Source: Minisyncoccia bacterium (GTDB taxonomy: Bacteria > Patescibacteriota > Minisyncoccia > SW-4-49-11). From it: 47,688 nucleotides of DNA. The notes beneath the pieces are model-generated. The model searched no databases, was not told the DNA's origin, and saw only the letters and a list, made by a program, of their open reading frames with translations. Position numbers and translations under genes: made by a program. This document shows, in pieces, positions 11,912 through 38,460 of this stretch. Within the stretch, counting starts at the first letter, position 1, and each line of letters starts with the position of its first letter. The stretch lies in assembly GCA_044341565.1 (NCBI GenBank), contig JBIIRM010000008.1, forward strand, positions 1 to 47,688. Reading direction: 5' to 3'.

Positions 11912-14900
11912 ATGGGAGAATCATTTAGACAAATACCCGAAGATTATAGAGAGCCTAATGAACATGATAGAGGTTTAGAAAATGGTCAAGGACTTATAGA
12001 ATTTGTTTCTGCTTCAGTCAAAAAAAGGAATAGATTTAATAAGGAATTAGGGCCAGTCATTGGTATTACGGACACAGATAATTTGGCTAAATTAAGACGT
12101 AAACTTCAAGAAGAATTGACAATCCCACAGTTAAATGGTAATACATTAGATTTAGAAACAGTAAATTTTTTACGTAATCGTTATGGTTTTGATGCTTTAG
12201 GACAAGAAGAATATGAGGTACAGCAAAGCCAGACACAGGAAGTTGAAAATAGTGTTGAACAGTTAGCTCCAGAAGAAAAAATTAGTCTTAACTCCCTAAA
12301 TTCAGAACAAACTCAAATAGTAGAAGAGGAAACAGGAATAACTCCTGAAATACCAGCTGAGCAAGAATTGGTATCAGAAGTATTGTCACCCATACAGGAC
12401 CAACAAGATCAAATTACCCCTATTGCGGAAGAATCAATTCTTCAAAATCCTGAGCAAGTTGCTCCAAAAGAAGAATTGACTTCTGAAAATCCAGATGTAC
12501 AGGGAATGTTGGCTGAGGTCACAGCTATTGTAGAGGCGGAACAACAGGAGGAAGAAAAATTAGATGTACCTGAAGGAGGAGAAAATAAAGGAGAAGAGAC
12601 TGAAAGATTAACACAAGAAGCTCGTGAAACTATTGCTATATATCAAAAATTTGGACAAGAGCATCCTATTTTTACAAGAGATCAGGCAACGCAAGAGCGA
12701 TATCGTCAATTAGAAGCTGAAGCTTGGGGAGCTCAGAATAGACTTGCTCATATGAATGGGGGAGAAATTTTTGCTTTACCACAAAAAAGAGATATAGAAT
12801 TATCACATCCAGAAGCAAAAGACACAAAAGACTATCTGGAATCATTAGAATATGGATTTGATGAGAAGGGTAATATTATTACCATTAAACATCATAATAA
12901 AAATATAGAATTGAATCGACCTTATAGTGTGGCAAATTTGATAGATAAAGCTCGACCAGCACAAATACTTACTGATATTAATTTAGATAATATCGATACA
13001 GATCTACATCGTATAGGATATGTATTACCGGGTTTGAATCCCCAAACCCCAGACTTTATTGTGAGTACACTCAGCAAAGATGAATTTATACAAGGAGTGA
13101 TTGTTGATGATATTGTTCCCGAACAAGTAGTAACACCTGAAGCTAATCCAGAGATACAAGCTTCTAGTGTTTTATTTCCGCCCGAGCCAACGGCAGAACA
13201 ATTACCAATCACCCCAGTACCAGAAGTTAATCTTGAAGTAGAAAACTCTACGCTTGAAGTTGTGATAAGTCCAGAAATAGAACAAGCACCAATAAATCCA
13301 GATTTGGGAAGTTTATATTATCAAGAAATTCAATTATGGAATAATATTCAAGCATTAAAAGAGCGAAGAGAGCAAAAAGAAGCTAAAGAAGAAGATATTG
13401 ATACACAAATTGAAAAAGCCGAGTCAGATTATCAAAGTTTTATAAACACATTATGGGGAAGTGAATTGGGAAGACGTTTTGTCCAATTTCTTGATTTGCG
13501 TACAGAGAGTGCATATACTGAAGAGCAAAATAATAAATATGGTAGAGATAAAGGTTTATTAGAGAAAATTCGTGATAAATTCTCAAGAGAAGATGTATCA
13601 GATACAGAAGAATTAAGTCCTAAAGATCAGGAACTTAAGGCTAGAAATGAATATAATCAAGCTTTACAAGAATTAATTAGAACTGAATCAGCTATTGGAT
13701 TAGAATCAGAAATACAAACATTATTTGCAACTGAAGTACAGCGTTTGCGAGATGAAAGAATAGTACAATCTCAGGAATTACAAGAATGGGATCAAACAGG
13801 ACTTGAAAAAATAGCTAATTCAACTAAAGAAAAACTATTCAACTGGTATATTAAACATAAAAATACTATTGGTAAAGTTAATCTTGCATTATTTGCAACA
13901 AGTACAACACTAGCATTAACTGGAGCTGGACTACCTGTAGCAGGAGCATTAGAGGCTGTAAGGCGTACAATAGCATATCCTATGGCTTTTGCTTCTGGAG
14001 TATCAAGTAGAGAACTTATAAGGTCAAAATTTGAAGATGGGGATGTTAATATACTTAATATTATTAAATATAAAGGGGGAATTACTAAACTAGTAGGGGA
14101 GTCTCTACAAGGAAATTATATTCAGGAAGCTCAAGATACTGAACTTACTGCAAAACTTAGTACCCTGGAGTCTTATTATCGGCTTAATGGAGGTAAATTT
14201 ACTGAATTGTCTCAGCAAAAAGCTTATGAGTTGATATTAACTGAATTAGGGCAGAGAGTAGAAAATCAAAAAATTGATGATGTTAAACCAGATATAGAGC
14301 AACCTGAAGAGCAAGAGACTACAGCTAACACAGGATTAGATTATAATATTAATTTAAAAGATAATCCTATAGAACAAAATCCAAACTATGTTAATAGCTT
14401 ATTAGAGACAGTATCAGAAAAGCGTATTACAGAATTACAAAGACTACAAAGGAATAGAACTATTGCAAATGTAGCAGGAACAGTTGTAGCGGGATCACTA
14501 TTAGTCAATTTAGCGGCACATGCTATTAAACTTGATAAACCAGATATTGCAGATACTCCTGATAATCTGTCTGTTGGGACAAGTCCAGAGACTGCTACTC
14601 CAAATCCTACAGAAATATCTCCAGTTAAACCTGATATTCCATCTTCAGAAGGAGCTGAATCTATGAATGAGGTTGCAAAAGAAGCTACTCAGCAATTATC
14701 AACAGAACAATTACAAGATATCTCTGAATTAAGTAAGGGAGAGACTTTATGGGGAGAAATAGCTAAAAAATTAGGAGCGAATGCCAGTGAAGCCCAAATT
14801 CAACAAGGAGTAGAAACATATATGCAATCAACACAAGGTTCAGAAACTATATTTAATTTAGCAAATCAAACTGAGGGGGGAAGAGCTTTATTATCTCAAT

Positions 14901-15859
14901 GGGGGATTGATAATGCAGGAGAACTATCACAAGTATCAAAAACAGATTTATATGAATTATCTCGTCATCTAGGAGTAGGACAATTAAAGGGGTTAGATAC
15001 ATTAGATATTACTAATCTCCCTCCTCTTGATGAGGTATCAACTCCTACAGGATTAACTCCTCCTGAAAGTCCTAGTTCTGGAGTAACTCCTCCTGGACCT
15101 GGAGCCGAGTCTATTCCTCCAACTGATACTAATACTTTTGCTCGAGAAGTATCTCATACATTGCGTTTAGAGAATACCTCTCTCGATGATAATCAAGTTA
15201 AAGATATTTTGGAAGCATATCATTCCACTGAGCAGGGACGTAATTCTATGTATGAATTAATATTATCCGCTCCTGAAGGAGATACCTATTTATCTAATTT
15301 AGGTATTAAGACTATAGAAGATTTTTCAAATCTATCAGAGGATCAATTATATGAGCTTTCCCAGAGTATTGATTTAAACAAGCTTGAAGGATTTAATTTC
15401 AATAATATTATCTTATCTCGATTTGAAGATGCTCCAAACTCCATTCCATTGATAAAAGGAACCGGAGCTTTATCCCAAGTAAACCAGTATATTGATTTGT
15501 ATGCGGGAGCATTGCCATATAATTCTACTTTGGGACAAGAAGTATTAACTACATATTTGAATACCCCAGAAGGAAAAGATTGGCTATATGATGCTATTGT
15601 AAATAATCCAGATACATTAAATGGAAATCAAGGTATTCAAATTGCAAAAGAATATTTCCGACAAAAGGGTATACAACAGGGAACAGATATTGATTGGACA
15701 CTCTTAAGTGGAGATAAAAAAAATCCCACCTCAATTTTCTGGAGAGAGACCTCTTTGACAGGAGGAAGAAAAATCCCACCATTATCTACTCTTTTGAAAC
15801 CAGGTACAATGCCAGGTATCAAGAAAGCACTTGAGCAAGTATTAACATTAAAACAATAA
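11912..15859 (+). CDS. giant (1315 aa) hypothetical membrane protein: acidic Glu/Gln-rich N-terminal half, central TM segments, C-terminal triple repeat of about 90 aa
   Basis: Uninterrupted 3.9-kb ORF. TM-like stretches are VNLALFATSTTLALTGAGLPVAGAL and IANVAGTVVAGSLLVNLAAHAI. Repeats sit at about 14741-15010, 15131-15400 and 15520-15680 (shared pattern Q[IV]...Y..[ST].QG....[FY].L....EG...LS..GI....S..S...LYELS). I recognise no family. Confidence 0.8.
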   Translation: MGESFRQIPEDYREPNEHDRGLENGQGLIEFVSASVKKRNRFNKELGPVIGITDTDNLAKLRRKLQEELTIPQLNGNTLDLETVNFLRNRYGFDALGQEEYEVQQSQTQEVENSVEQLAPEEKISLNSLNSEQTQIVEEETGITPEIPAEQELVSEVLSPIQDQQDQITPIAEESILQNPEQVAPKEELTSENPDVQGMLAEVTAIVEAEQQEEEKLDVPEGGENKGEETERLTQEARETIAIYQKFGQEHPIFTRDQATQERYRQLEAEAWGAQNRLAHMNGGEIFALPQKRDIELSHPEAKDTKDYLESLEYGFDEKGNIITIKHHNKNIELNRPYSVANLIDKARPAQILTDINLDNIDTDLHRIGYVLPGLNPQTPDFIVSTLSKDEFIQGVIVDDIVPEQVVTPEANPEIQASSVLFPPEPTAEQLPITPVPEVNLEVENSTLEVVISPEIEQAPINPDLGSLYYQEIQLWNNIQALKERREQKEAKEEDIDTQIEKAESDYQSFINTLWGSELGRRFVQFLDLRTESAYTEEQNNKYGRDKGLLEKIRDKFSREDVSDTEELSPKDQELKARNEYNQALQELIRTESAIGLESEIQTLFATEVQRLRDERIVQSQELQEWDQTGLEKIANSTKEKLFNWYIKHKNTIGKVNLALFATSTTLALTGAGLPVAGALEAVRRTIAYPMAFASGVSSRELIRSKFEDGDVNILNIIKYKGGITKLVGESLQGNYIQEAQDTELTAKLSTLESYYRLNGGKFTELSQQKAYELILTELGQRVENQKIDDVKPDIEQPEEQETTANTGLDYNINLKDNPIEQNPNYVNSLLETVSEKRITELQRLQRNRTIANVAGTVVAGSLLVNLAAHAIKLDKPDIADTPDNLSVGTSPETATPNPTEISPVKPDIPSSEGAESMNEVAKEATQQLSTEQLQDISELSKGETLWGEIAKKLGANASEAQIQQGVETYMQSTQGSETIFNLANQTEGGRALLSQWGIDNAGELSQVSKTDLYELSRHLGVGQLKGLDTLDITNLPPLDEVSTPTGLTPPESPSSGVTPPGPGAESIPPTDTNTFAREVSHTLRLENTSLDDNQVKDILEAYHSTEQGRNSMYELILSAPEGDTYLSNLGIKTIEDFSNLSEDQLYELSQSIDLNKLEGFNFNNIILSRFEDAPNSIPLIKGTGALSQVNQYIDLYAGALPYNSTLGQEVLTTYLNTPEGKDWLYDAIVNNPDTLNGNQGIQIAKEYFRQKGIQQGTDIDWTLLSGDKKNPTSIFWRETSLTGGRKIPPLSTLLKPGTMPGIKKALEQVLTLKQ

Positions 15860-15860
15860 T

Positions 15861-16277
15861 ATGGCAAATCCAGAAGACAATATTATCGCATTATTAGGAC
15901 TAGAAGATTTACCTGTTGAGAATAGAGCTCAATTAGTGGATGAATTAACCCAAATTCTTGAAGTTCGTGTACTCAGTGCCGCTTATGATACATTGAGTGA
16001 AGATCAGGCAAAACATTTAGATACACTACTTAATGAGAATAATCCAGAAGTAGTCACTACCTATATTCAAGAAAATGTTCCAACTCTTAGTGATATATTT
16101 GCCAATCAAATAGAAGTATTAAAAGAGGAATTAGTACAACATAAAGAGAAAATCACCAAGAATTTGACACAAGAATTAGAACTTGAGCATAATCACGATG
16201 AAGATGATGGACATACTCATGAACATGGAGAAGATCATATTCACACAGAATCAGGTGACGAAAATCCTACAGAATAA
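15861..16277 (+). CDS. small acidic protein with a His-rich C-terminal tail
   Basis: It starts 1 nt after the giant gene's stop, so translational coupling is likely. The tail is ELEHNHDEDDGHTHEHGEDHIHTESGDENPTE (about 16182-16277), and the rest looks helical and acidic. Confidence 0.7.
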   Translation: MANPEDNIIALLGLEDLPVENRAQLVDELTQILEVRVLSAAYDTLSEDQAKHLDTLLNENNPEVVTTYIQENVPTLSDIFANQIEVLKEELVQHKEKITKNLTQELELEHNHDEDDGHTHEHGEDHIHTESGDENPTE

Positions 16278-30061: not shown

Positions 30062-31408
30062 ATGGCAGGGAATAATTCTCTTGATTCATTTACCAAAAAT
30101 CGCAACGTAATTATTATTGCTGGTGTCGCTATATTAGCTATTGTTATATTGATGCTTGGTAATGCGCTTGGATTCAAAATTGGAGGTGAGAAAAAAGTAC
30201 AAAAAGCAAATTTGGTAGTATGGGGAGTCTGGGATGAAAGTGAGACAATGACGAAATTGGGAAGTGATTTTCGTAAAATATATCCTAATGTAAGTATAGA
30301 ATATCGTAAATTCAAGCCACAAGATTATGAGACAGAACTTATTAATGCTTTAGCTGAGGGACGAGGTCCAGATATATTGGCAATGGAGAGAACTTGGCTT
30401 GGTAAACATAAGAATAAGTTAGCCCCAATGCCAGAAGAAATTATGACACTCAAAGAGTATCAAGATACTTTTGTAGATGTGGTTAATCAAGATTTTATTG
30501 ATGAGGGTAAAATATATGGATTCTCTCTATACACCGATACTTTAGCATTATTATATAACAAAGATGCTTTTAATGATGCTGGAATTGCAAATCCACCAGT
30601 AACTTGGGAAGAATTACAAAGTATAGTACCCAAATTAACTAAAATAGATCAATTTGGTGAGATTAAACAGGCGGGAGTTGCATTAGGTACAGGAGATAAT
30701 ATAAATCGTTCACCAGATGTTTTGATGGCATTAATGTTACAGTCTGGAGCTCAATTTACTGACCCTAAAGATACTAGTAGAATTACTTTTTCTCAAAGTA
30801 AAAATGTCAATGGACAAAATATAAATCCTGCTCAATTATCTTTAGCTTATTATACCGATTTTGCTAATCCTCGAAAAGGAGTATATACCTGGAATTCAAC
30901 CTTAAATAATTCAATAGATGCTTTTTATGAAAGAGAAGTTGCTATGATATTTGGATATTCATATCAGGTAGAAGCAATTAAAGCAAAAGCCCCAAGACTT
31001 AATTTTGCAGTAGCTCCTCTCCCTCAGGTATCTACAGATTCTGGCCTTGCTAATTTTGCAAATTATTGGGGATATGGAGTAAGTGGTCAATCTAAATACC
31101 CAAAAGAAGCCTTTGCATTCCTCAAATCAGCCACTGAAAAGGAAAATGCTCAAGAGTATTTCTTGAAAACCAAGCGCCCAACAGCCAGAAGAGATTTAGT
31201 AGATACACAATCACAAGACATTGATTATGGAGTATTTGTAAAACAAATATTACAAGCTAAAACCTGGAGACAACCCGATAATAATTCAGTAGATAAAATA
31301 TTTATCAATGCTATTAATGGAGTAAATTCAGGATTACTTGACTATAGTAAAGCTATTTCGCAAGCTCAAACAGAAATACAGACATTAGCTGATAATGTGA
31401 AAAAATGA
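30062..31408 (+). CDS. ABC-transporter-type extracellular solute-binding protein (family 1, sugar-like), N-terminally membrane-anchored
   Basis: TM anchor VIIIAGVAILAIVILML, then VVWGVWDESE...YPNVSIEYRKFKPQDYETELINALAEGRGPDILAM...YNKDAF, typical of SBP_bac_1. No permease or ATPase gene is adjacent. Confidence 0.8.
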   Translation: MAGNNSLDSFTKNRNVIIIAGVAILAIVILMLGNALGFKIGGEKKVQKANLVVWGVWDESETMTKLGSDFRKIYPNVSIEYRKFKPQDYETELINALAEGRGPDILAMERTWLGKHKNKLAPMPEEIMTLKEYQDTFVDVVNQDFIDEGKIYGFSLYTDTLALLYNKDAFNDAGIANPPVTWEELQSIVPKLTKIDQFGEIKQAGVALGTGDNINRSPDVLMALMLQSGAQFTDPKDTSRITFSQSKNVNGQNINPAQLSLAYYTDFANPRKGVYTWNSTLNNSIDAFYEREVAMIFGYSYQVEAIKAKAPRLNFAVAPLPQVSTDSGLANFANYWGYGVSGQSKYPKEAFAFLKSATEKENAQEYFLKTKRPTARRDLVDTQSQDIDYGVFVKQILQAKTWRQPDNNSVDKIFINAINGVNSGLLDYSKAISQAQTEIQTLADNVKK

Positions 31409-32730
31409 AATATATAAAGTTCAGTATAGTTTTTGGTATAATATTCTTAGTAGTTTCATTTTTTAGTATTAACTATACTAATGCACAGAGTGCAGATGGA
31501 GCTTGTAGTGCAGGGGCAACATCATTAGAGCAAAACTGTACTTTTCAAAATGGAAGCTCTCGTTTAAATGGAAAATGCCAGGTTAAAGATAAAAATAATC
31601 CAGGTTTAGGATTAACTTGTCGTACTAGCTTAGGATCATCCTGCTCAGGTGATACTTGTCAAAATGGATTAGCCTGTATTAATCAGGTTTGTTCCAGTCC
31701 AAGAGGGGCTAAAACTCAAGGTCAATCTTGTTCAGGGAATGGAAATGAATGTATTGCAGGTCTTGAATGTAGAAATTTTATATGTACAAAAGAAGCTGCC
31801 ATTACTGGTGGAGGGTCTGGGCAAACTGGAGGTGGTCAAGTCGGTACCCCTGGAGGCTCAACAGGGGCAGAAACAGGCCTTGTTAAATGTGGAGTGAGTC
31901 GAGATTGTACTATTTGTGATATATTTATCTTAATTCGAGATATCTTTAATTTTGCTTTAGGGCTACTAGCCTCACTCGCGGTATTAAGTGTTGTTATTGG
32001 TGGGGTCTATGTGTTGACTTCAGCAGGTAATCCTGGAGCGGTAAGTACAGGATATGGCATTATTACCAATGCAGTAATTGGACTATTACTCGTAATGGCA
32101 AGCTTTCTCTTATTTAGTTTCCTTCTTGTGGGGCTTGGATTTCAAGAACAAAATTTCTCAGCTGTACTTACTTTTCAACCAGGTAAAGTATTCGAGGTAA
32201 AATGTGATAATGCTAGTACTTTTAATGATAATGGATCAAATGGAGGAGGGTCTGCTGTACTGGGTAATGGTGGGAGTAACTCATCAACTATAAGTTGTGC
32301 GAGTTTAAATGATTCGGTTAAGGCGGATTTAAATAATGCTAGTTCTCAGACGGGTGTTCCTTCTGAACTATTGGCTGGAATTATGCAAAGAGAATGTCCT
32401 GCAGCCTTTAATAATGCTAATGCTTGTCCAAATGAAAATGGCTCTGGAGCAGCTGGAGCAGGTCAATTTTTACAAAGTAGCTGGAATGAGCTGGGATGTA
32501 GTGGAAGTAGAACGAATCGAAGAGATGCCCTTGTTTGTATGGGGAAACATTTAAAACGGTATAATAAATGTTCTAGTCAATGTAATGGATATTCTAATTT
32601 TTCATCCAGAGCTTGTTCTGATTGTGTGGCAGGAGATTATTGTGGTGCATGTTCAGGTTCATCAGCTTGTGGAGGTAATTATTGTGATGGGGTGTGGAGT
32701 AACTATCAAAAATTTAAAACATGTAAATAA
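31405..32730 (+). CDS. secreted Cys-rich domain, T4SS-pilin-like TM hairpin and C-terminal Cys-rich lytic-transglycosylase-like domain (fusion)
   Basis: Signal peptide MKYIKFSIVFGIIFLVVSFFSINYTNA. Cys-rich repeats follow the pattern C.G..C..GL.C.N..C. The pilin core is FNFALGLLASLAVLSVVIGGVYVLTSAGNPGAVSTGYGIITNAVIGLLLVMASFLLF (about 31897-32155). The SLT-like motifs are ELLAGIMQRECP...GAAGAGQFLQSSW (about 32302-32730). The ATG overlaps the SBP stop (ATGA). Confidence 0.7.
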   Translation: MKYIKFSIVFGIIFLVVSFFSINYTNAQSADGACSAGATSLEQNCTFQNGSSRLNGKCQVKDKNNPGLGLTCRTSLGSSCSGDTCQNGLACINQVCSSPRGAKTQGQSCSGNGNECIAGLECRNFICTKEAAITGGGSGQTGGGQVGTPGGSTGAETGLVKCGVSRDCTICDIFILIRDIFNFALGLLASLAVLSVVIGGVYVLTSAGNPGAVSTGYGIITNAVIGLLLVMASFLLFSFLLVGLGFQEQNFSAVLTFQPGKVFEVKCDNASTFNDNGSNGGGSAVLGNGGSNSSTISCASLNDSVKADLNNASSQTGVPSELLAGIMQRECPAAFNNANACPNENGSGAAGAGQFLQSSWNELGCSGSRTNRRDALVCMGKHLKRYNKCSSQCNGYSNFSSRACSDCVAGDYCGACSGSSACGGNYCDGVWSNYQKFKTCK

Positions 32731-32734
32731 TAAT

Positions 32735-33841
32735 ATGAATAAAATCTTCAGTCTATTTTTACTAATAGCATCTTTCTATTCTATTTCTCCAGTATATGCA
32801 GATACTAGTATATACTCAAGTTTCTTATATCCAAGTTTTGCTGTAAATAATGAAATTTTATATTTTGATCAATATGCAGGAGCTATTGTGAAACAAAATG
32901 TTATTACTGGTGAGAAGTCAGAGATATTTGATTTAATACCTTCTGCTACTAACTTAGTATCAATTTCTCCTGAACAATCTAAAATATTACTTTATCCTCC
33001 TAATATATCATTTCCAAAATATCAAGCACCATTTTTTGATAGTTCAAGAAAATCTCCCGATAATCAATGGTGGGTATATGATTTTAATACAACAAATAAA
33101 ATACTACTAGATGATAAAATTAATTTAGTTGGCTGGTATTCTGATAATGAAATTATATATGTATTTAATAATAAAGATATCACAGTTGCCCCAACCAATG
33201 ACCTATCTAAATTTAATATTCTATACTCTAATATACCATCTAATGTGGATATTAATAAACAAATTATAGCAAATGATAACCATCAAATAATTCCATTAGT
33301 TGATGGTTATCTTGTGGGAAATAAGAAAAACTTTGTATATCAAAAAAGTACTAATTATCAAATTTCAGCCAATCCAAAATTGAATTATTTTTTGGAATAT
33401 AATAATAGTCAGATAAAAGTTTTTGATTGGGATAGTAAGCAAGTAGGTAGTATTATTAATATCAGTAACAGGAAAGCTTTGTTACTGAATAATGATACTA
33501 TAGCTATATTGGCTACAAATGGTAATTTGATACAATATAATTTACAAGGGCAGGAGCAATCAAATGTATCATTAAATCCAATAGTTACTGATATATATTC
33601 GGTTGATCAATCTGGAAATGAACTATTAATTAATCAAAATAATCAAATACGTACTTATAATTTATTAAAAAAAGAGCAGGGAACCATCCTATTATCCACC
33701 AATACTCCTACTCCTAATACTGACACAAATTCAGAGACAGAACAATCCAACACATTAGGGAATATTGCTATTTTAATAGGAGGAATAGTATTCCTTGCTG
33801 GGGGACTGGGGCTATTTATTTGGAAATTAAGAAAAAGATGA
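32735..33841 (+). CDS. secreted beta-propeller-like protein with a C-terminal TM anchor
   Basis: The true start ATG 32735 gives the signal peptide MNKIFSLFLLIASFYSISPVYA. The body is Asn/Ile-rich and beta-strand-like with PD40/TolB-like strings (ISPEQSKILLY, WWVYDFNT). The C-terminal anchor is IAILIGGIVFLAGGLGLFIWKLRKR. Confidence 0.6.
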   Translation: MNKIFSLFLLIASFYSISPVYADTSIYSSFLYPSFAVNNEILYFDQYAGAIVKQNVITGEKSEIFDLIPSATNLVSISPEQSKILLYPPNISFPKYQAPFFDSSRKSPDNQWWVYDFNTTNKILLDDKINLVGWYSDNEIIYVFNNKDITVAPTNDLSKFNILYSNIPSNVDINKQIIANDNHQIIPLVDGYLVGNKKNFVYQKSTNYQISANPKLNYFLEYNNSQIKVFDWDSKQVGSIINISNRKALLLNNDTIAILATNGNLIQYNLQGQEQSNVSLNPIVTDIYSVDQSGNELLINQNNQIRTYNLLKKEQGTILLSTNTPTPNTDTNSETEQSNTLGNIAILIGGIVFLAGGLGLFIWKLRKR

Positions 33842-33871: not shown

Positions 33872-34711
33872 ATGAAATTAATCATATCTACAGCATTTGG
33901 AATTGTCTTTGCACTAGTATTCTTTAGTAATTCTAATATAACACTTGCTCAATGTGGAAGTGGTCCAAGCTGTACAGGGAATTTTGTTTGTGTGAACGCA
34001 GATGGTACTCCTAAATGTTTGCTAAATCAGGTTAGTAATAATGGTTTATGTGAGGGCGACTCTTCTGTGAAATGTTCAGCAAATCAAGCTTGTATTCAAA
34101 ATAATGCAACAGAAATTGTATGTGCCCCTTTAGCGGGATCATCAGCTAATACAAATTTACCAGGTTCTGGAAGTACAACAACTTGTCCAACCTGTAAATC
34201 TGGTGAAACATGTATTAAGAGTGCAGCAGGACCACTCGTATGTAGATCCGCCGCTACAAATTGTACTCCTGCTTGTACAACAGGTAAGGTGTGTGTTAAA
34301 GCAACGCCAACAGCAACTACTGGAACTTGTGTAGATAATGCGCCTACTCAAGCTGCTGGAGGAGCTGGTGGTAATGGTGCTGGAGGGAATGGATCTTCAG
34401 GAGGAAGTGGTGGTGGCTTATTAGAAGGTCTCAATGCTTTTGGTAGTGCAGATTCTGGACTTAATACAGAGGGAACTCTCATTGGGTTTATTTCTAATAT
34501 TATTCGTTGGATATTAGGACTTCTTGGAACTGTGTTCTTTGTAATCATAGTTTTACAAGGGTATCTTTATATGACATCTTCAGGAGATGCGAGTAAAACA
34601 GCAGCAGCTACGGGGGCTATTACTAATGCAGTAATAGGACTACTGATTATTATGGGAGCTTTCCTCATTACTAATTTTGTGACAAGTGGTTTGATTGCCG
34701 CTGGGTCTTAA
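33872..34711 (+). CDS. T4SS-pilin-like protein, paralogue 1, with a long Cys-rich N-terminal extension and Gly-rich linker
   Basis: Signal peptide MKLIISTAFGIVFALVFFSNSNITLA, then about 20 Cys in C..G..C-type repeats and the linker AGGAGGNGAGGNGSSGGSGGG. The pilin core is IIRWILGLLGTVFFVIIVLQGYLYMTSSGDASKTAAATGAITNAVIGLLIIMGAFLITNF. Confidence 0.8.
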   Translation: MKLIISTAFGIVFALVFFSNSNITLAQCGSGPSCTGNFVCVNADGTPKCLLNQVSNNGLCEGDSSVKCSANQACIQNNATEIVCAPLAGSSANTNLPGSGSTTTCPTCKSGETCIKSAAGPLVCRSAATNCTPACTTGKVCVKATPTATTGTCVDNAPTQAAGGAGGNGAGGNGSSGGSGGGLLEGLNAFGSADSGLNTEGTLIGFISNIIRWILGLLGTVFFVIIVLQGYLYMTSSGDASKTAAATGAITNAVIGLLIIMGAFLITNFVTSGLIAAGS

Positions 34712-34721
34712 TATCTTATAT

Positions 34722-35069
34722 ATGATAGAAGCATTTATATCCAATTTCATCATAGTAACAGCTAAAGCCCAGGAGACATCGCCTCCTCCTATATTAGCTA
34801 TACCTACAGGAACAGGAGTGGGGGAGCAAGGAGATCTGTTTACTTTTGTGTCAGCTATTGTGCAATGGGGATTGGGATTAATAGGGATAGTATTATTTGT
34901 ACTTATACTCTTTTCTGGATTCCAATATGCAACAGCAGGGGGCGACTCTAAAAAAACTGAAGAAGCTATTAGTAGAATTACTTCTGCAGTAATCGGAGTA
35001 TTCATTGTAGGGGTGGCTTTTATACTATCCAATGCAGTATTAGGATTTGTTTTTAGTCTAGGATCTTAA
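34722..35069 (+). CDS. T4SS-pilin-like protein (TrbC/VirB2-type two-TM hairpin), paralogue 2
   Basis: The core is IVQWGLGLIGIVLFVLILFSGFQYATAGGDSKKTEEAISRITSAVIGVFIVGVAFILSNAVLGFVF. The start is trimmed to ATG 34722, after the upstream stop at 34711. Confidence 0.8.
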   Translation: MIEAFISNFIIVTAKAQETSPPPILAIPTGTGVGEQGDLFTFVSAIVQWGLGLIGIVLFVLILFSGFQYATAGGDSKKTEEAISRITSAVIGVFIVGVAFILSNAVLGFVFSLGS

Positions 35070-35097
35070 TATACTGACTTATCCACAATAGTATCAC

Positions 35098-35126
35098 TTG
35101 CATAGTAATATAAGATATGATAGTAT
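35098..35126 (+). promoter_or_regulatory. candidate promoter for pilin paralogue 3
   Basis: TTGCAT (35098-35103), a 17-nt spacer, then TAGTAT (35121-35126) in the 100-bp A+T-rich spacer. Confidence 0.25.
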
Positions 35127-35169
35127 AAAAACATAGAACATATTATTCAATAATTATTAAGATATTCTT

Positions 35170-35553
35170 ATGAATACTTCCCAGATAAAATCAATAGCAA
35201 CAAGAGCATTATTACCTGTATTAGTATTAGCTCCTACTTTAGCTGGAGCTGCAACTCCCATAAAAGATACTAGAGTCATAGGTGAAATACCTCAAGTAGC
35301 TGGTACTAATCAATCTACTGACCTTGTGGCTACAGTACAAGTGGTTATTCAATGGGCATTAGGATTTATCGGAATTGTAATATTCATTATTTTCTTATTT
35401 GCAGGATTTGAATATGCAACAGCAGGAGGAGATGAAGGAAAAGCAAAAACTGCACAGTCTCGAATGATTAACGCGGTAATTGGACTTATTATTATATTCT
35501 TTGCCTTTGTAGCTTCAAATGCAATATTGTCATTCGTATTCCCAGGAAATTAA
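35170..35553 (+). CDS. T4SS-pilin-like protein, paralogue 3
   Basis: Signal-like N-terminus ...LVLAPTLAGAATP. The core is VIQWALGFIGIVIFIIFLFAGFEYATAGGDEGKAKTAQSRMINAVIGLIIIFFAFVASNAILSFVFP. Confidence 0.85.
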   Translation: MNTSQIKSIATRALLPVLVLAPTLAGAATPIKDTRVIGEIPQVAGTNQSTDLVATVQVVIQWALGFIGIVIFIIFLFAGFEYATAGGDEGKAKTAQSRMINAVIGLIIIFFAFVASNAILSFVFPGN

Positions 35554-35573
35554 TCAAATTGATAGATACTATG

Positions 35574-35610
35574 AAACAATAAAAAGGGATTATATCCCTT
35601 TTTATTGTTT
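35574..35610 (+). terminator. rho-independent terminator-like hairpin after pilin paralogue 3
   Basis: AAACAATAAAAAGGGAT-tat-ATCCCTTTTTATTGTTT is a 17-bp perfect stem whose 3' arm carries a T-run. Confidence 0.65.
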
Positions 35611-35697
35611 AGAGAATACATATTCAAATAGTATAATCTTCTTGTCAGATAATAGAATACTTGATATACTTGTAATATATAGAATAGTAAAATAGAT

Positions 35698-36114
35698 ATG
35701 AGAGTCTTATTGATTATAATAGCTTTATTGATGGGGGTATTTGTATTAAGTTCTAATATATCTCTAGCTCAAAGAGCCCCTGATGCCACTCTCCCTGGTC
35801 CAGGAACAATCCCAATTAATACCGGAATAGCTGAGGGACCAAGCTTGATAGAAACAGTGTCTATTATTATAAGGTGGATATTAGGATTTATTGGAATTAT
35901 AATATTTATTATATTCCTATATGCAGGATTTGAATATGCAACAGCAGGAGGGGATGAGAAGCAGGCTGAATCAGCTCAAAAAAGAATGGTAAATGCAATC
36001 ATAGGACTGATTATTATATTCTTTGCATTTGTATTGTCGAATGCAGTATTAAGCTTTGTATTTCCTCCAGACGATACAGTAGATGATCCTAATATGCCAT
36101 TAAATGTAAATTAG
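35698..36114 (+). CDS. T4SS-pilin-like protein, paralogue 4
   Basis: Signal peptide MRVLLIIIALLMGVFVLSSNISLA. The core is IIRWILGFIGIIIFIIFLYAGFEYATAGGDEKQAESAQKRMVNAIIGLIIIFFAFVLSNAVLSFVFP. Confidence 0.85.
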   Translation: MRVLLIIIALLMGVFVLSSNISLAQRAPDATLPGPGTIPINTGIAEGPSLIETVSIIIRWILGFIGIIIFIIFLYAGFEYATAGGDEKQAESAQKRMVNAIIGLIIIFFAFVLSNAVLSFVFPPDDTVDDPNMPLNVN

Positions 36115-36115
36115 T

Positions 36116-36556
36116 ATGAAATATCTATCAATAGTAATAATTGCAATAATGATACTAATGAGTAATCCTTTTATTAGCTTTGCAGGTACCCCATCAGGGG
36201 GAGGAACTACTCCAGCTACGGGTGGTACTCCATCAGGGGGAGGAACTACTCCAGCTACGGGTGGTACTCCCACAACCCCAACTGACAATACTTCTGCTCA
36301 AAGTGTAGGATTTGTGAATCCAATTCGATTTAATTCTATCCCTGAGCTTATAGCAGGTATTATCAATGCTCTCTTGGGTATACTCGGAGCTATTACTGTG
36401 GCAATATTAGTGATGTCAGGATTTAAATATATGACAGCTTCTAATCCAGGAGCAGTAGGGCAAGCTTTAGATGGTATTAGGAATGCAATTGTAGGACTTA
36501 TGATTATTATGGGGGCTTTTCTCATCACACAATATATTATATCTGCTTTGGTGTAA
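36116..36556 (+). CDS. T4SS-pilin-like protein, paralogue 5, with a tandem Thr/Pro/Gly repeat
   Basis: Signal-like MKYLSIVIIAIMILMSNPFISFA, then (GTPSGGGTTPATG)x2. The core is IINALLGILGAITVAILVMSGFKYMTASNPGAVGQALDGIRNAIVGLMIIMGAFLITQY. Confidence 0.85.
   Translation: MKYLSIVIIAIMILMSNPFISFAGTPSGGGTTPATGGTPSGGGTTPATGGTPTTPTDNTSAQSVGFVNPIRFNSIPELIAGIINALLGILGAITVAILVMSGFKYMTASNPGAVGQALDGIRNAIVGLMIIMGAFLITQYIISALV
36185..36262 (+). repeat. two tandem copies of a 39-bp coding repeat
   Basis: GGTACCCCATCAGGGGGAGGAACTACTCCAGCTACGGGT (36185-36223) is repeated at 36224-36262 with 2 substitutions. Each copy encodes GTPSGGGTTPATG, and a partial third unit (GTPTTPT) follows. Confidence 0.9.
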
Positions 36557-36612: not shown

Positions 36613-37323
36613 TCAGCGAGCTTGTATCACTGGGTATCCAGATTGCCCACCTGGCATCTTCTGGTAATATTCATAATCATTATTAACATCTGCTCCGATA
36701 TTAAATTTCCTTTTAATATCGGGAGTATATTGTTTACCAAATACTCCTAGGGATATTTTGATCCTTTTCCCAGAAAGTGATGAAGGTAAATCGTGGCATT
36801 TAGCGTAAGGCTCAATAACCCTCCAATTGTCACCAATGGTAACCTCTTGATTTATCCAGTGTTTCTCTGGATGGCCAGTCTGTTTGAAGCAGACCTTGAG
36901 AGGTCGTGCTGGGAGATCATACTCACCATCACGATTGATCACGATGGGAGTCATTTCCCCGGGGGGATTGAGTTGTGCCTGCCTTGCACTATGTATGCTC
37001 TGGTTGAAGTTAGCTGAGCAATAGTTCAAGAGGAGAATTACTCCAATCACAGTAGCAGCAAACCTGAGCTTGCTATTGAGTACCGCTGCAATTATAGTAA
37101 TGGCCATCAAAAAGAATATCTCACCATCAGAAATACTTCCTCCGATGAGAATCATTTTGGCCCCCAACCAAAGACCAGCCAAACTAATCAGTAAAACTGA
37201 CCAGTTCAGTCCGCGAGCTTTACTCCACAAATTCCCAGAACTTGCCGGAGATGGGGAGGAGTTTGTGGATGATGAGGTGTTTGAGCCTCTAGATCCACGG
37301 GACCCGTATTGACGATTTGTCAT
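36613..37323 (-). CDS. hypothetical membrane protein: Ser-rich N-terminus, 3 TM segments and a soluble domain of about 120 aa
   Basis: MTNRQYGSRGSRGSNTSSSTNSSPSPASS, then TM segments (WSVLLISLAGLWLGAKMILIGG, IFFLMAITIIAAVL, FAATVIGVILLLNY). It is visibly more G+C-rich than neighbouring genes. I recognise no family. Confidence 0.65.
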   Translation of the reverse strand: MTNRQYGSRGSRGSNTSSSTNSSPSPASSGNLWSKARGLNWSVLLISLAGLWLGAKMILIGGSISDGEIFFLMAITIIAAVLNSKLRFAATVIGVILLLNYCSANFNQSIHSARQAQLNPPGEMTPIVINRDGEYDLPARPLKVCFKQTGHPEKHWINQEVTIGDNWRVIEPYAKCHDLPSSLSGKRIKISLGVFGKQYTPDIKRKFNIGADVNNDYEYYQKMPGGQSGYPVIQAR

Positions 37324-37434: not shown

Positions 37435-38460
37435 TCAGTCTTTGGAAGCTTCGAGAGCTCCCAGGACTTGATTTGCTATATCTTGCCCTTTACCCCCTCC
37501 ATGGAAAATAACTTTGGCATTGGTACCAAGAGTTTTTTCCAAAATAGGATATTGGGCGAGTTTAGCAAAAAGCTGTTGCTCTGAGATATCAGAGCCCATT
37601 GCTCCAGCTTTAATTGCAGCTGTGAATCCTTTGGTTTCAGCCAATAGATTCTCATTCTGTTGCTTAATAACCAGACCACGGGCTGTCTCGCGATCGAGAT
37701 CAGCTTTTTGCTCAGCTTTTGCTATGGCAGATTTATTCTTGGCATCATTGACCTCGGACGGTAACTCTAAATCATCTATATTTATTGCAGATAGCTCAAT
37801 ACCAATATTATCTAGTTTCTTCAGAATGGTCTTACCAAGAGCAAGAGCTTCAATATCCTCTGTAGTATCCATACCCTTAATACGAGATCCATCTTGCTCC
37901 AGACCAAGAGCTTGAAGTAATTGATCAGGAGTCATTGTAGATATTTGAATATCCTGAACCTCTTTACCCGCAGCTATATGCTTGGAGTATTCTTGATAGG
38001 TATGTTGTTGCAGTACTAGACGAATATAAGGGTTCAAGATGCGTTCAGTTGCCTGACGTTCATCCTGATCCTCTGCATTATAGTGCAAGTTATAAACATG
38101 CTTTATTTTTTCCTGCAGAGTATTTCCTTTAATTTGAGCAATTACGCTAACTCTTGCTTCTAGAGTAACATCAGCCAATTCTAATTTGGCAAAGTCATCA
38201 GTACTAGGAGCATCAGATCTATCCTGAGGGGCTACTTTTCTAGGCCCGTCATGTCTAAAAAGATAGACAGGAAACTGGTTGGTTTCATACCATCCAGCTA
38301 ATTTTGATCCCGGTACAATCAGATGAGGTCCCGGAGTAGCAATTTTGGAAAGAATTCCACTCCCATTATGATTTGGACGGCTTCCTAACCATGAAATCAC
38401 ATGAACTTCATCATCAGGTACAATCCAGATAGGGGGGATAAAGAAAGAATCAAAGGCCAT
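37435..38460 (-). CDS. SPFH/Band-7 (prohibitin/flotillin-like) domain protein without an N-terminal TM segment
   Basis: IWIVPDDEVHVISWLG...GPHLIVPGSKL, then IGIELSAINIDDLELPSEVNDAKNKSAIAKAEQKADLDRETA, matches the SPFH core and the following Ala/Glu-rich helix. G+C is visibly higher than the surroundings. Confidence 0.7.
   Translation of the reverse strand: MAFDSFFIPPIWIVPDDEVHVISWLGSRPNHNGSGILSKIATPGPHLIVPGSKLAGWYETNQFPVYLFRHDGPRKVAPQDRSDAPSTDDFAKLELADVTLEARVSVIAQIKGNTLQEKIKHVYNLHYNAEDQDERQATERILNPYIRLVLQQHTYQEYSKHIAAGKEVQDIQISTMTPDQLLQALGLEQDGSRIKGMDTTEDIEALALGKTILKKLDNIGIELSAINIDDLELPSEVNDAKNKSAIAKAEQKADLDRETARGLVIKQQNENLLAETKGFTAAIKAGAMGSDISEQQLFAKLAQYPILEKTLGTNAKVIFHGGGKGQDIANQVLGALEASKD

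Follow-up and report, generated by a model that had tools for sequence, protein, structure and literature searches.

The closest described counterparts of the protein analysed here are the wall hydrolases that are encoded together with genes of type IV secretion systems (T4SSs), namely VirB1, PrgK of pCF10, TraG of pIP501, TcpG and CwlT. Like the protein of this study, these enzymes carry an SLT/lysozyme-like domain with a single catalytic Glu and are tethered to the membrane, and the presumed common job is the local opening of peptidoglycan. A second group of relatives is formed by the VirB2/TrbC pilins, which have a signal peptide and a two-helix hairpin and which in Patescibacteria occur as chromosomal tandem arrays of 2-11 divergent paralogues (PF18895; PMC12102498; Wang 2023 as cited in PMC12857230). 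Such VirB2-like arrays are essential in S. epibionticum (PMC12102498, PMC12857230), and no pilus has so far been demonstrated for any VirB2-like protein of Patescibacteria (PMC12857230). In the sole genetically tractable Patescibacterium, epibiotic growth requires the T4SS-like system together with its array of VirB2-like pilins, and the role of both has been called 'completely unknown' (PMC11665869). A 2025 survey found that most Patescibacteria having VirB2 are without a recognisable VirB1 (Quinonero-Coronel 2025, PMC12102498).

In the CdiA-CT/CdiI and Rhs-CT/RhsI modules, a constant carrier is joined at a sharp boundary to a C-terminal domain that varies among close relatives. Peptidoglycan is the target of the T6SS effectors Tse3 and Tse1, whose immunity proteins Tsi3 and Tsi1 are extracytoplasmic. 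Wall-cutting domains are also found in other machines, on carrier folds other than a pilin: FlgJ is a flagellar rod cap fused to a muramidase, EtgA/EscI belongs to a T3SS, and T7 gp16 stands for the phage tape-measure or internal proteins that bear an SLT domain; we know of none among these with strain-to-strain exchange of the enzyme head.

The window, by which we mean the whole 47.7-kb stretch of DNA analysed, comes from an uncultured, ultrasmall bacterium of the Paceibacteria, and the pilin array in it lies on the chromosome. The gene in focus very probably encodes a Sec-exported membrane protein of Paceibacteria (Patescibacteria/CPR) that combines a VirB2-like hairpin with two extracytoplasmic domains, a disulfide-rich one at the N-terminus and one of the GH23/SLT superfamily at the C-terminus with Glu330 as the predicted catalytic acid, and it opens an array of six VirB2-like pilin genes. 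The features are as follows.

30062-31408, + strand: upstream gene of a solute-binding protein (SBP_bac_1), whose adjacency to the fusion gene is kept in the clade
31405-32730, + strand: pilin/lysozyme-like fusion gene, 441 aa, its ORF confirmed on the window
31405-31485, + strand: signal-peptide-like N-terminus, residues 1-27, ending in ...INYTNA/QS (hydropathy peak centres 10-18; putative cleavage site)
31486-31809, + strand: disulfide-rich N-terminal domain, residues 28-135, 12 Cys, with two 4-Cys units at residues 80-96 and 109-127
31810-31869, + strand: Gly/Thr-rich linker, residues 136-155, read off the sequence
31870-32136, + strand: conserved core, residues 156-244, comprising a Cys motif beside the membrane, ETGLVKCGVSRDCTICD, and a two-helix pilin hairpin of VirB2-like type (PF18895, paralogue homology, invariant columns)
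32137-32241, + strand: conserved segment after the hairpin, LGFQEQNFSAVLTFQPGKVFEVKCDNASTFNDNG (residues 245-279), which runs up to the variable-head boundary
32284-32727, + strand: C-terminal SLT/goose-lysozyme-like domain of type A, residues 294-441, 14 Cys
32392-32394, + strand: codon of the Glu in MQRE, Glu330, which is predicted to be the catalytic acid, does not vary in alignments A3 and A4 and aligns to Slt35 Glu162
32240-33660, + strand: exchangeable cassette of about 1.4 kb, comprising the fusion head and the ectodomain of the next gene (DNA identity profiles)
32735-33841, + strand: partner gene, 368 aa, with signal peptide, beta-propeller-like ectodomain and C-terminal membrane anchor
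33872-36556, + strand: five VirB2-like pilin genes after the partner gene (33872-34711, 34695-35069, 35170-35553, 35698-36114 and 36116-36556), all of which pass PF18895

The ATG of the fusion gene overlaps the stop codon of the upstream gene (ATGA), and the two are probably translationally coupled. The initial annotation had read the 441-aa product as a signal peptide, a Cys-rich domain and a pilin hairpin, and this layout is borne out on the window, where all the strings quoted for it are present (ALGLLAS from residue 184, ELLAGIMQRE at 321-330, GAGQF from 351). The hydropathy scan gives three hydrophobic segments, one N-terminal (centres 10-18) and two corresponding to helices at about 176-205 and 215-243 (peaks at 178-200 and 221-239), that is, the signal peptide and two-helix hairpin by which VirB2-like pilins are recognised. 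Of the 30 Cys of the protein, the N-terminal domain has 12 and the C-terminal domain 14, and the other 4 lie around the hairpin.

That the core is a pilin core common to the downstream paralogues, as had been claimed, is upheld by BLASTP against paralogue 1 (39% over 69 aa, 3e-12) and paralogue 5 (2e-11), and by an HMM built from the five paralogues, which matches the fusion at 7e-14. PF18895 covers residues 176-240 of the fusion with 26.3 bits, 0.3 bits short of the gathering score of 26.6, and it scores 37.8-40.2 bits on orthologues with the same core. Since the core is kept in 57 homologues, 23 of which were aligned and show about 50 invariant columns, the resemblance is not due to chance. 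The fusion and the five downstream genes form a six-gene array, and in the loci compared the fusion gene always heads an array of bona fide PF18895 pilins. With the model NF045849, the five downstream pilins score 28-40.6 bits against a cut-off of 40, which is reached by 35698-36114 only. Members of the published arrays in Patescibacteria are described as small pilins, whereas the fusion adds a C-terminal, predicted wall-cutting domain of about 150 aa and the N-terminal Cys-rich domain. In Paceibacteria at least, the pilin that comes first in the array incorporates a predicted wall-cutting enzyme.

For the C-terminal domain, the Pfam models of SLT remain below their gathering scores on the fusion, and the only one with a match is SLT_2 (12.5 bits, E 0.084, cut-off 24.3, residues 347-374); in the orthologue P0015, Pfam SLT reaches 14.8 bits. 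Since Pfam fails to call the domain, the initial annotation, which saw a resemblance to lytic transglycosylases of SLT/VirB1 type here, went beyond routine annotation. Its call is supported by a profile of six type-A domains searched against 1.84e9 proteins, which arrives at P0064 (3.9e-7), P0073 (3.2e-5), P0075, P0079 and P0084 (1.5e-4), proteins whose matched stretches are Pfam SLT/SLT_2 above cut-off. E330, G351, Q354 and D374 are invariant in alignment A3, and E330 in A4 as well. Conservation of the Glu of MQRE had been proposed as a check, and Glu330 proves invariant in all relatives of the type-A domain and in the canonical SLT proteins aligned alongside, and it falls on the catalytic Glu162 of Slt35 in the profile that includes canonical SLTs. 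The other proposed check, a lysozyme-like fold, likewise leaves the idea standing: the AF2 model of the head, whose input alignment, like profile A3, included four canonical SLT sequences, has a lysozyme-like fold with a pLDDT of 93.7 and places E330 at the end of model helix 27-37. The replacement of E-S by E-C, also noticed before, is found in all pilin-fused type-A domains, and remoter relatives have E-A, E-G or E-H. The Glu-Ser dipeptide is the signature of family-1 lytic transglycosylases and not a requirement of the superfamily.

These profile and alignment matches place the C-terminal domain in the SLT/goose-lysozyme (GH23) superfamily, as a divergent member. Glu, G..Q and D motifs that stay invariant across deep divergence are what one would expect of an active enzyme, and the fusion is likely to cut peptidoglycan in its glycan strands, whether as lytic transglycosylase or as muramidase. 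Searches by other routes gave less: a profile of ten pilin-fused heads found nothing credible among PDB sequences, and a word-indexed search with the head alone had no match. Alkaline phosphatase and PAT1, which came up with the single- and six-sequence profiles against PDB sequences at E 0.1-1 only, are regarded as chance matches.

The head of the fusion is exchanged between close relatives. Between the window and locus L001, DNA identity is 85-100% on either side of 32240-33660 and about 30% inside, and the same cassette boundaries recur in another lineage, where loci L005, L006 and L007 have flanks of 100% identity but bear heads of type E, A and B, respectively. At least five lysozyme-like head types (A-E) occur on one pilin core, and the swap boundary is fixed at FNDxGxxGGG. 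Comparison by hhalign relates A to D weakly (143 columns, E 1e-3, the Glu in register) and is not significant for A against B, C or E. Four of the five head types fall below Pfam thresholds, so that surveys relying only on VirB1 models would miss these enzymes. With all five head types as tblastn queries, the window yielded the resident head as sole match and no silent or orphan head cassette, and the head was not found as a phage-borne cassette in viral contigs or GenBank phages either.

The exchange extends into the next gene, the true start of which is 32735 (32585 is the ORF start only). The N-terminal domain of this partner tracks the head type and not the lineage. A type-A head followed by a propeller-like partner is seen in four diverged lineages, i.e. 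the clade of the window and those of P0015, P0058 and P0060, with pairwise E-values of 2e-17, 1e-16 and 6e-24 and in three genomic contexts. Head and partner co-vary in types A, B, D and E, also where heads are swapped inside one lineage, but not in type C, whose head (locus L014) is paired with a B-type partner. Among B-type heads the identity goes down to 34-47%, and their partners are still 70-91% identical. Since it has a signal peptide and a C-terminal anchor, the partner faces the same compartment as the enzyme. Its ectodomain takes up residues 23 to 320 or so, and the partner found in B or E loci is 225 aa long. Its structural model is of low confidence (pLDDT 62), a generic beta-propeller without link to known lysozyme inhibitors, and a fold predicted at this level would speak neither for nor against an inhibitor role.

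These features set the fusion apart from the monoderm wall hydrolases in that its anchor is a VirB2-like pilin hairpin and its gene lies within a pilin array, that its head is swapped among at least five lysozyme-like types along with a segment of the neighbouring gene, and that it has no CHAP/NlpC or M23 second domain and no VirB4 in the window. With CdiA-CT/CdiI and Rhs-CT/RhsI the fusion family has in common the constant carrier, the sharp boundary and the C-terminal domain variable among close relatives. It differs from them and from T6SS effectors in its carrier, which is a pilin hairpin instead of a filament, an Rhs cage or a T6SS spike; moreover, its heads are all predicted wall glycosidases where those systems have a mixed toxin repertoire, head and partner are not strictly paired, as the type-C head shows, and the window holds no orphan cassettes. 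In the literature covered, which is incomplete, neither pilin/lysozyme fusions nor polymorphic wall-hydrolase cassettes are described in Patescibacteria.

As to which wall is cut, sequence does not tell the producer's own from that of a host, and the exchange of the head together with the neighbouring ectodomain suggests use against a host cell wall. We favour, at a little under an even chance, the reading that the pilin-displayed enzyme opens host-cell peptidoglycan and that the swappable head has in the partner its cognate immunity protein or regulator. On the epibiont's surface, where pilin array and T4SS-like apparatus operate, the pilin part would position the enzyme so that it opens non-self peptidoglycan, namely the wall of the attached host cell. 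A tie to such an apparatus accords with the type-A fusion P0059, whose gene lies near that of a VirB4-like ATPase, and with the VirB2-like arrays known from Patescibacteria. The head would be a replaceable module traded among strains together with the ectodomain of the adjacent membrane-anchored protein, which most simply would be a cognate binding partner shielding the producer's own wall from the enzyme. Because only about 15 residues link the head to its own membrane, reaching the host wall would require extrusion of the pilin or release of the head. The fuller proposition is that a VirB2-like pilin of Paceibacteria carries polymorphic peptidoglycan-cutting heads for opening the wall of a host bacterium, that a separate membrane-anchored protector belongs to each head, and that the system is the pilin-borne analogue of the effector/immunity modules of CDI, Rhs and T6SS; as a whole it is rather unlikely. 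If it were true, the essential arrays of Patescibacteria would be scaffolds that display host-directed enzymes and binding domains on the surface, and not fibre subunits alone.

A possible though doubtful alternative is that the head acts in cis as the equivalent of VirB1, cutting the producer's own peptidoglycan for the pilin array or T4SS channel, with fusion to the pilin ensuring co-localisation and with the partner as regulator or scaffold. The short linker, which puts the head beside its own membrane, is in accord with it, as is the general membrane anchoring of monoderm T4SS wall hydrolases (PrgK, TraG of pIP501; cited in PMC12102498). Further in its favour, a homologous type-A fusion (P0059, locus L025) lies inside a VirB4 locus, four genes after the VirB4-like ATPase and immediately before two pilins, and a hidden VirB1 fused to the pilin would fill the VirB1 gap of most VirB2-bearing Patescibacteria. 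However, own-wall cutting gives no evident reason for swapping five unrelated head types between genomes with 100% identical flanks, and it leaves the co-exchange of the neighbouring ectodomain unexplained. The 382-aa protein of locus L025 has no detectable kinship to the partner. Whether the wall is its own or the host's, the fusion family, in which a predicted catalytic head and the neighbouring ectodomain are swapped between otherwise identical genomes, offers a testable handle on how ultrasmall epibionts handle a cell wall.

The initial annotation implied a T4SS locus, but the 47.7-kb window holds no T4SS ATPase, and none of the VirB4, VirD4 and VirB6 families is found in it. This lack, together with the housekeeping genes gyrA, gatB and rpsL that surround the fusion in the window and the PF18895 score slightly below cut-off, would agree with a general autolysin of growth or division for which the hairpin is a mere membrane anchor unrelated to type IV secretion; such a role is improbable given that the gene consistently comes first in an array of bona fide PF18895 pilins, that a relative adjoins VirB4 and that fast head exchange is atypical of division autolysins. 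Least probable of all is a non-catalytic module for adhesion, whose lysozyme-like fold would bind host peptidoglycan or another polysaccharide, as E-C in place of E-S, the Pfam SLT scores under threshold and the unusually many Cys of the domain might indicate, but against which stand the catalytic Glu, G..Q and D motifs invariant over deep divergence.

The N-terminal Cys-rich domain has no Pfam match. The 4-Cys units said to be repeated throughout it are clear in two copies, at 80-96 and 109-127, and the first four Cys follow another pattern; what it shares with paralogue 1 (33872-34711) is the spacing pattern and not a significant sequence similarity (BLASTP of the N-domains, E = 0.25). Not every family member has the domain: of 56 homologues scored, 13 have 4-12 Cys upstream of the core, and the remaining ones have low-complexity linkers or other domains at this place.

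The genes considered here lie on chromosomal Patescibacterium DNA, in the order gyrA, methyltransferase, solute-binding protein, fusion, partner, five pilins and, further on, rpsL-rpsG-fusA, which is kept in related genomes. The features around the pilin array are:

30062-31408: solute-binding protein gene (SBP_bac_1/SBP_bac_8), overlapping the fusion start codon by 4 nt (ATGA)
31405-32730, forward strand: pilin fusion gene, product of 441 aa
32735-33841: partner gene, product with a signal peptide, an ectodomain and a C-terminal membrane anchor
33872-36556: five downstream pilin genes, paralogues 1-5
36613-37323, reverse strand: 236-aa protein without Pfam hits
37435-38460, reverse strand: SPFH/Band 7 protein

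The solute-binding protein gene adjoins the fusion in all related loci of the clade, with no ABC permease beside it; uptake of wall-released sugars would be a speculative role. Genes similar in size and position to the two reverse-strand genes occur in four related loci (L001, L002, L004 and L005).

The fusion reading frame is present as the initial annotation described it, and the sequence strings quoted there are all found in place. A hydropathy scan gave three hydrophobic segments, namely a signal-peptide-like N-terminus and helices at about residues 176-205 and 215-243. With the signal peptide cleaved and the two helices forming a hairpin, the N- and C-terminal domains should both face outward, and this agrees with their 12 and 14 cysteines, respectively (4 more lie around the hairpin). 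The repeated Cys unit earlier proposed for the N-terminal domain does exist, in two copies (80-96 and 109-127), and what it has in common with paralogue 1 is the spacing pattern, without significant sequence similarity (BLASTP E 0.25).

In Pfam, residues 176-240 score 26.3 bits against PF18895 (T4SS_pilin), 0.3 bits under the cut-off, and all five downstream genes are above it; the latter are also related to the Mbov_0395 pilin-like conjugal transfer family of NCBIfam, one at its cut-off of 40 bits and four under. The fusion hairpin matches the paralogues at 3e-12 and 2e-11 by BLASTP and at 7e-14 by a paralogue HMM, and orthologues with the same core reach 40 bits against PF18895. Because of this paralogue homology and these orthologue scores, we accept the segment as a VirB2-like pilin hairpin; sequence homology makes the fusion a PF18895 member, and its gene heads an array of six pilin genes. 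Such arrays comprise 2-11 genes in Patescibacteria and are essential in S. epibionticum (PMC12102498, PMC12857230), and VirB1 is reported to be absent from most VirB2-bearing Patescibacteria genomes (PMC12102498).

For the C-terminal head (residues 294-441), the best Pfam match was SLT_2 at E 0.084, which is not called, and PDB sequence searches gave chance matches only. A profile of six type-A heads found 38 matches among 1.84 billion representative proteins, of which the closest (1e-22 to 1e-29) are further PF18895 fusions, belonging to different pilin subfamilies, while the aligned stretches of the remote ones (3.9e-7 to 1.5e-4) coincide with above-threshold Pfam SLT or SLT_2. In an alignment of 19 head-type domains E330, G351, Q354, D374 and Y426 are invariant, and the Glu at the catalytic position, E330, on whose conservation the initial annotation had staked its lytic-transglycosylase reading, is kept in every relative. 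The 19-domain profile matched Slt35/MltB at 6e-9 with catalytic Glu162 opposite E330, a match which is not independent since the profile included four canonical SLT sequences. The lysozyme-like fold proposed earlier is likewise borne out in the predicted structure, and the E-C in place of E-S departs from the family-1 motif only. Predicted fold and profile together place the head in the SLT superfamily, below Pfam thresholds. The pilin hairpin bears a lysozyme-like domain that faces outward and keeps its catalytic signature intact. The mode of work of this domain may be likened to that of VirB1, PrgK and TraG, the membrane-tethered SLT-type enzymes of secretion machines, and in organisation the protein recalls FlgJ, whose muramidase is joined to a structural part.

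A near-invariant core, ETGLVKCGVSRDCTICD followed by the hairpin and FxVKCDxxSxFNxxG, is common to 57 homologues. At least five types of C-terminal domain can be told apart among them, and the five listed here all have a Glu at the aligned position.

Head types among the fusion homologues
Type A: the type of the window fusion itself
Type B: YYE...AYGRYQ; no Pfam hit
Type C: PF18896 and PF01464, above threshold
Types D and E: SLT, sub-threshold

Database annotation already shows the domain combination: four homologues carry PF18895, PF18896 and/or PF01464, and JGI gives several the name 'muramidase'. The relatives derive from 13 species-level MAGs; these bear the labels Parcubacteria, Paceibacteria or Minisyncoccia, and two of them the label Saccharibacteria. 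N-terminal cargo differs as well: the same pilin scaffold bears a Cys-rich domain or a low-complexity linker, or else an uncharacterised domain of about 260 aa (P0016 and P0017) or a weak GDSL-lipase-like domain (residues ~1-190 of P0060), and proteins of these last two kinds may therefore display two enzymes at once.

Between the window (type A) and the closely related contig L001 (type E), DNA identity is 85-100% to about 32240; it then drops to about 30%, and after about 33660 it is back at 90%, hence the replaced stretch runs on into the partner gene. Three contigs of a second lineage, each from a different sample, are 100% identical over about 1.9 kb upstream, carry heads A, E and B, and break at the same place; assembly chimeras are unlikely because each variant protein is found on 3-5 contigs. 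The partner tail tracks lineage (the last 59 aa are 90% identical between the window and L001), whereas the ectodomain tracks head type, with identities of 60-100% for A-A, 25-48% for E-E, 70-95% for B-B and 45-94% for D-D pairs, and with no or weak similarity within a lineage when heads differ. Type-A heads always have a partner of 361-393 aa, both within the window clade and in three diverged lineages (P0015, P0058 and P0060), with pairwise E-values of 2e-17, 1e-16 and 6e-24; two of these loci, P0058 and P0060, have a different genomic context. The partners of heads B, C, D and E belong to a family of about 225 aa whose N-terminal halves are type-specific. Head and partner are therefore exchanged together as a cassette. 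The one exception is the sole type-C locus, L014 (2243-4309; PF18896 and PF01464), which retains a B-type partner (73-85% identical to those of B loci) behind a gap of 145 nt, against tight spacing elsewhere, and where the head alone seems to have been replaced. At B-type loci the partners are better conserved than the heads. For the type-A partner, a low-confidence model (pLDDT 62) predicts a seven-bladed beta-propeller without specific relatives.

The head would have muralytic activity, as a lytic transglycosylase or as a muramidase, and be deployed with a pilin or T4SS-like apparatus, its target being a wall other than the producer's own, and the partner would be a cognate binder or protector. 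We tentatively favour such host-directed use, because unrelated heads with their adjacent ectodomain are rapidly exchanged between otherwise identical genomes, a pattern that marks conflict or host-range loci rather than a housekeeping gap-cutter. A VirB1 role purely in cis, against which this exchange speaks, is somewhat less likely; the short tether of the head, the imperfect head/partner pairing and the lack of VirB4 from the window, where no T4SS ATPase or channel gene was found in 47.7 kb, keep it in contention. In its population genetics, and in that respect only, the cassette resembles polymorphic toxins such as CdiA-CT/CdiI, or the wall effectors of T6SS and the immunity proteins that go with them.

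A genuine T4SS locus does house P0059, a fusion homologue with the same head type: on L025 1-9836 (GCA_030837625.1; also L026), the gene of a VirB4-like ATPase is followed by genes for a 190-aa protein, for an Rce1-like (CPBP) intramembrane protease and for an 894-aa protein lacking Pfam hits. Next come the type-A fusion and two pilins, and a 382-aa protein is encoded there as well. Lying near the pilins, the protease could serve in pilin processing.

While the individual domains are already known, our literature search, of incomplete coverage, found no published description of a wall-cutting domain joined to a pilin; as far as we found, the fusion itself, its place at the head of a pilin array and the head/partner cassette are new.

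Relative to L001, the window also has replaced stretches in the Cys-rich N-terminal domain of paralogue 1 (34060-34460) and in the N-terminal region of paralogue 5 (36060-36310), so outward-facing extensions of other array members are also strain-exchanged. Elsewhere in the window, a 1315-aa ORF without Pfam match (11912-15859) is followed by a DUF5663 protein (15861-16277), and 696-2771 encodes a type IV (N-methyl) pilin-like protein with Laminin_G_3 and fibronectin type III domains, a second kind of pilin on the contig, unrelated to the array, with a large displayed domain.
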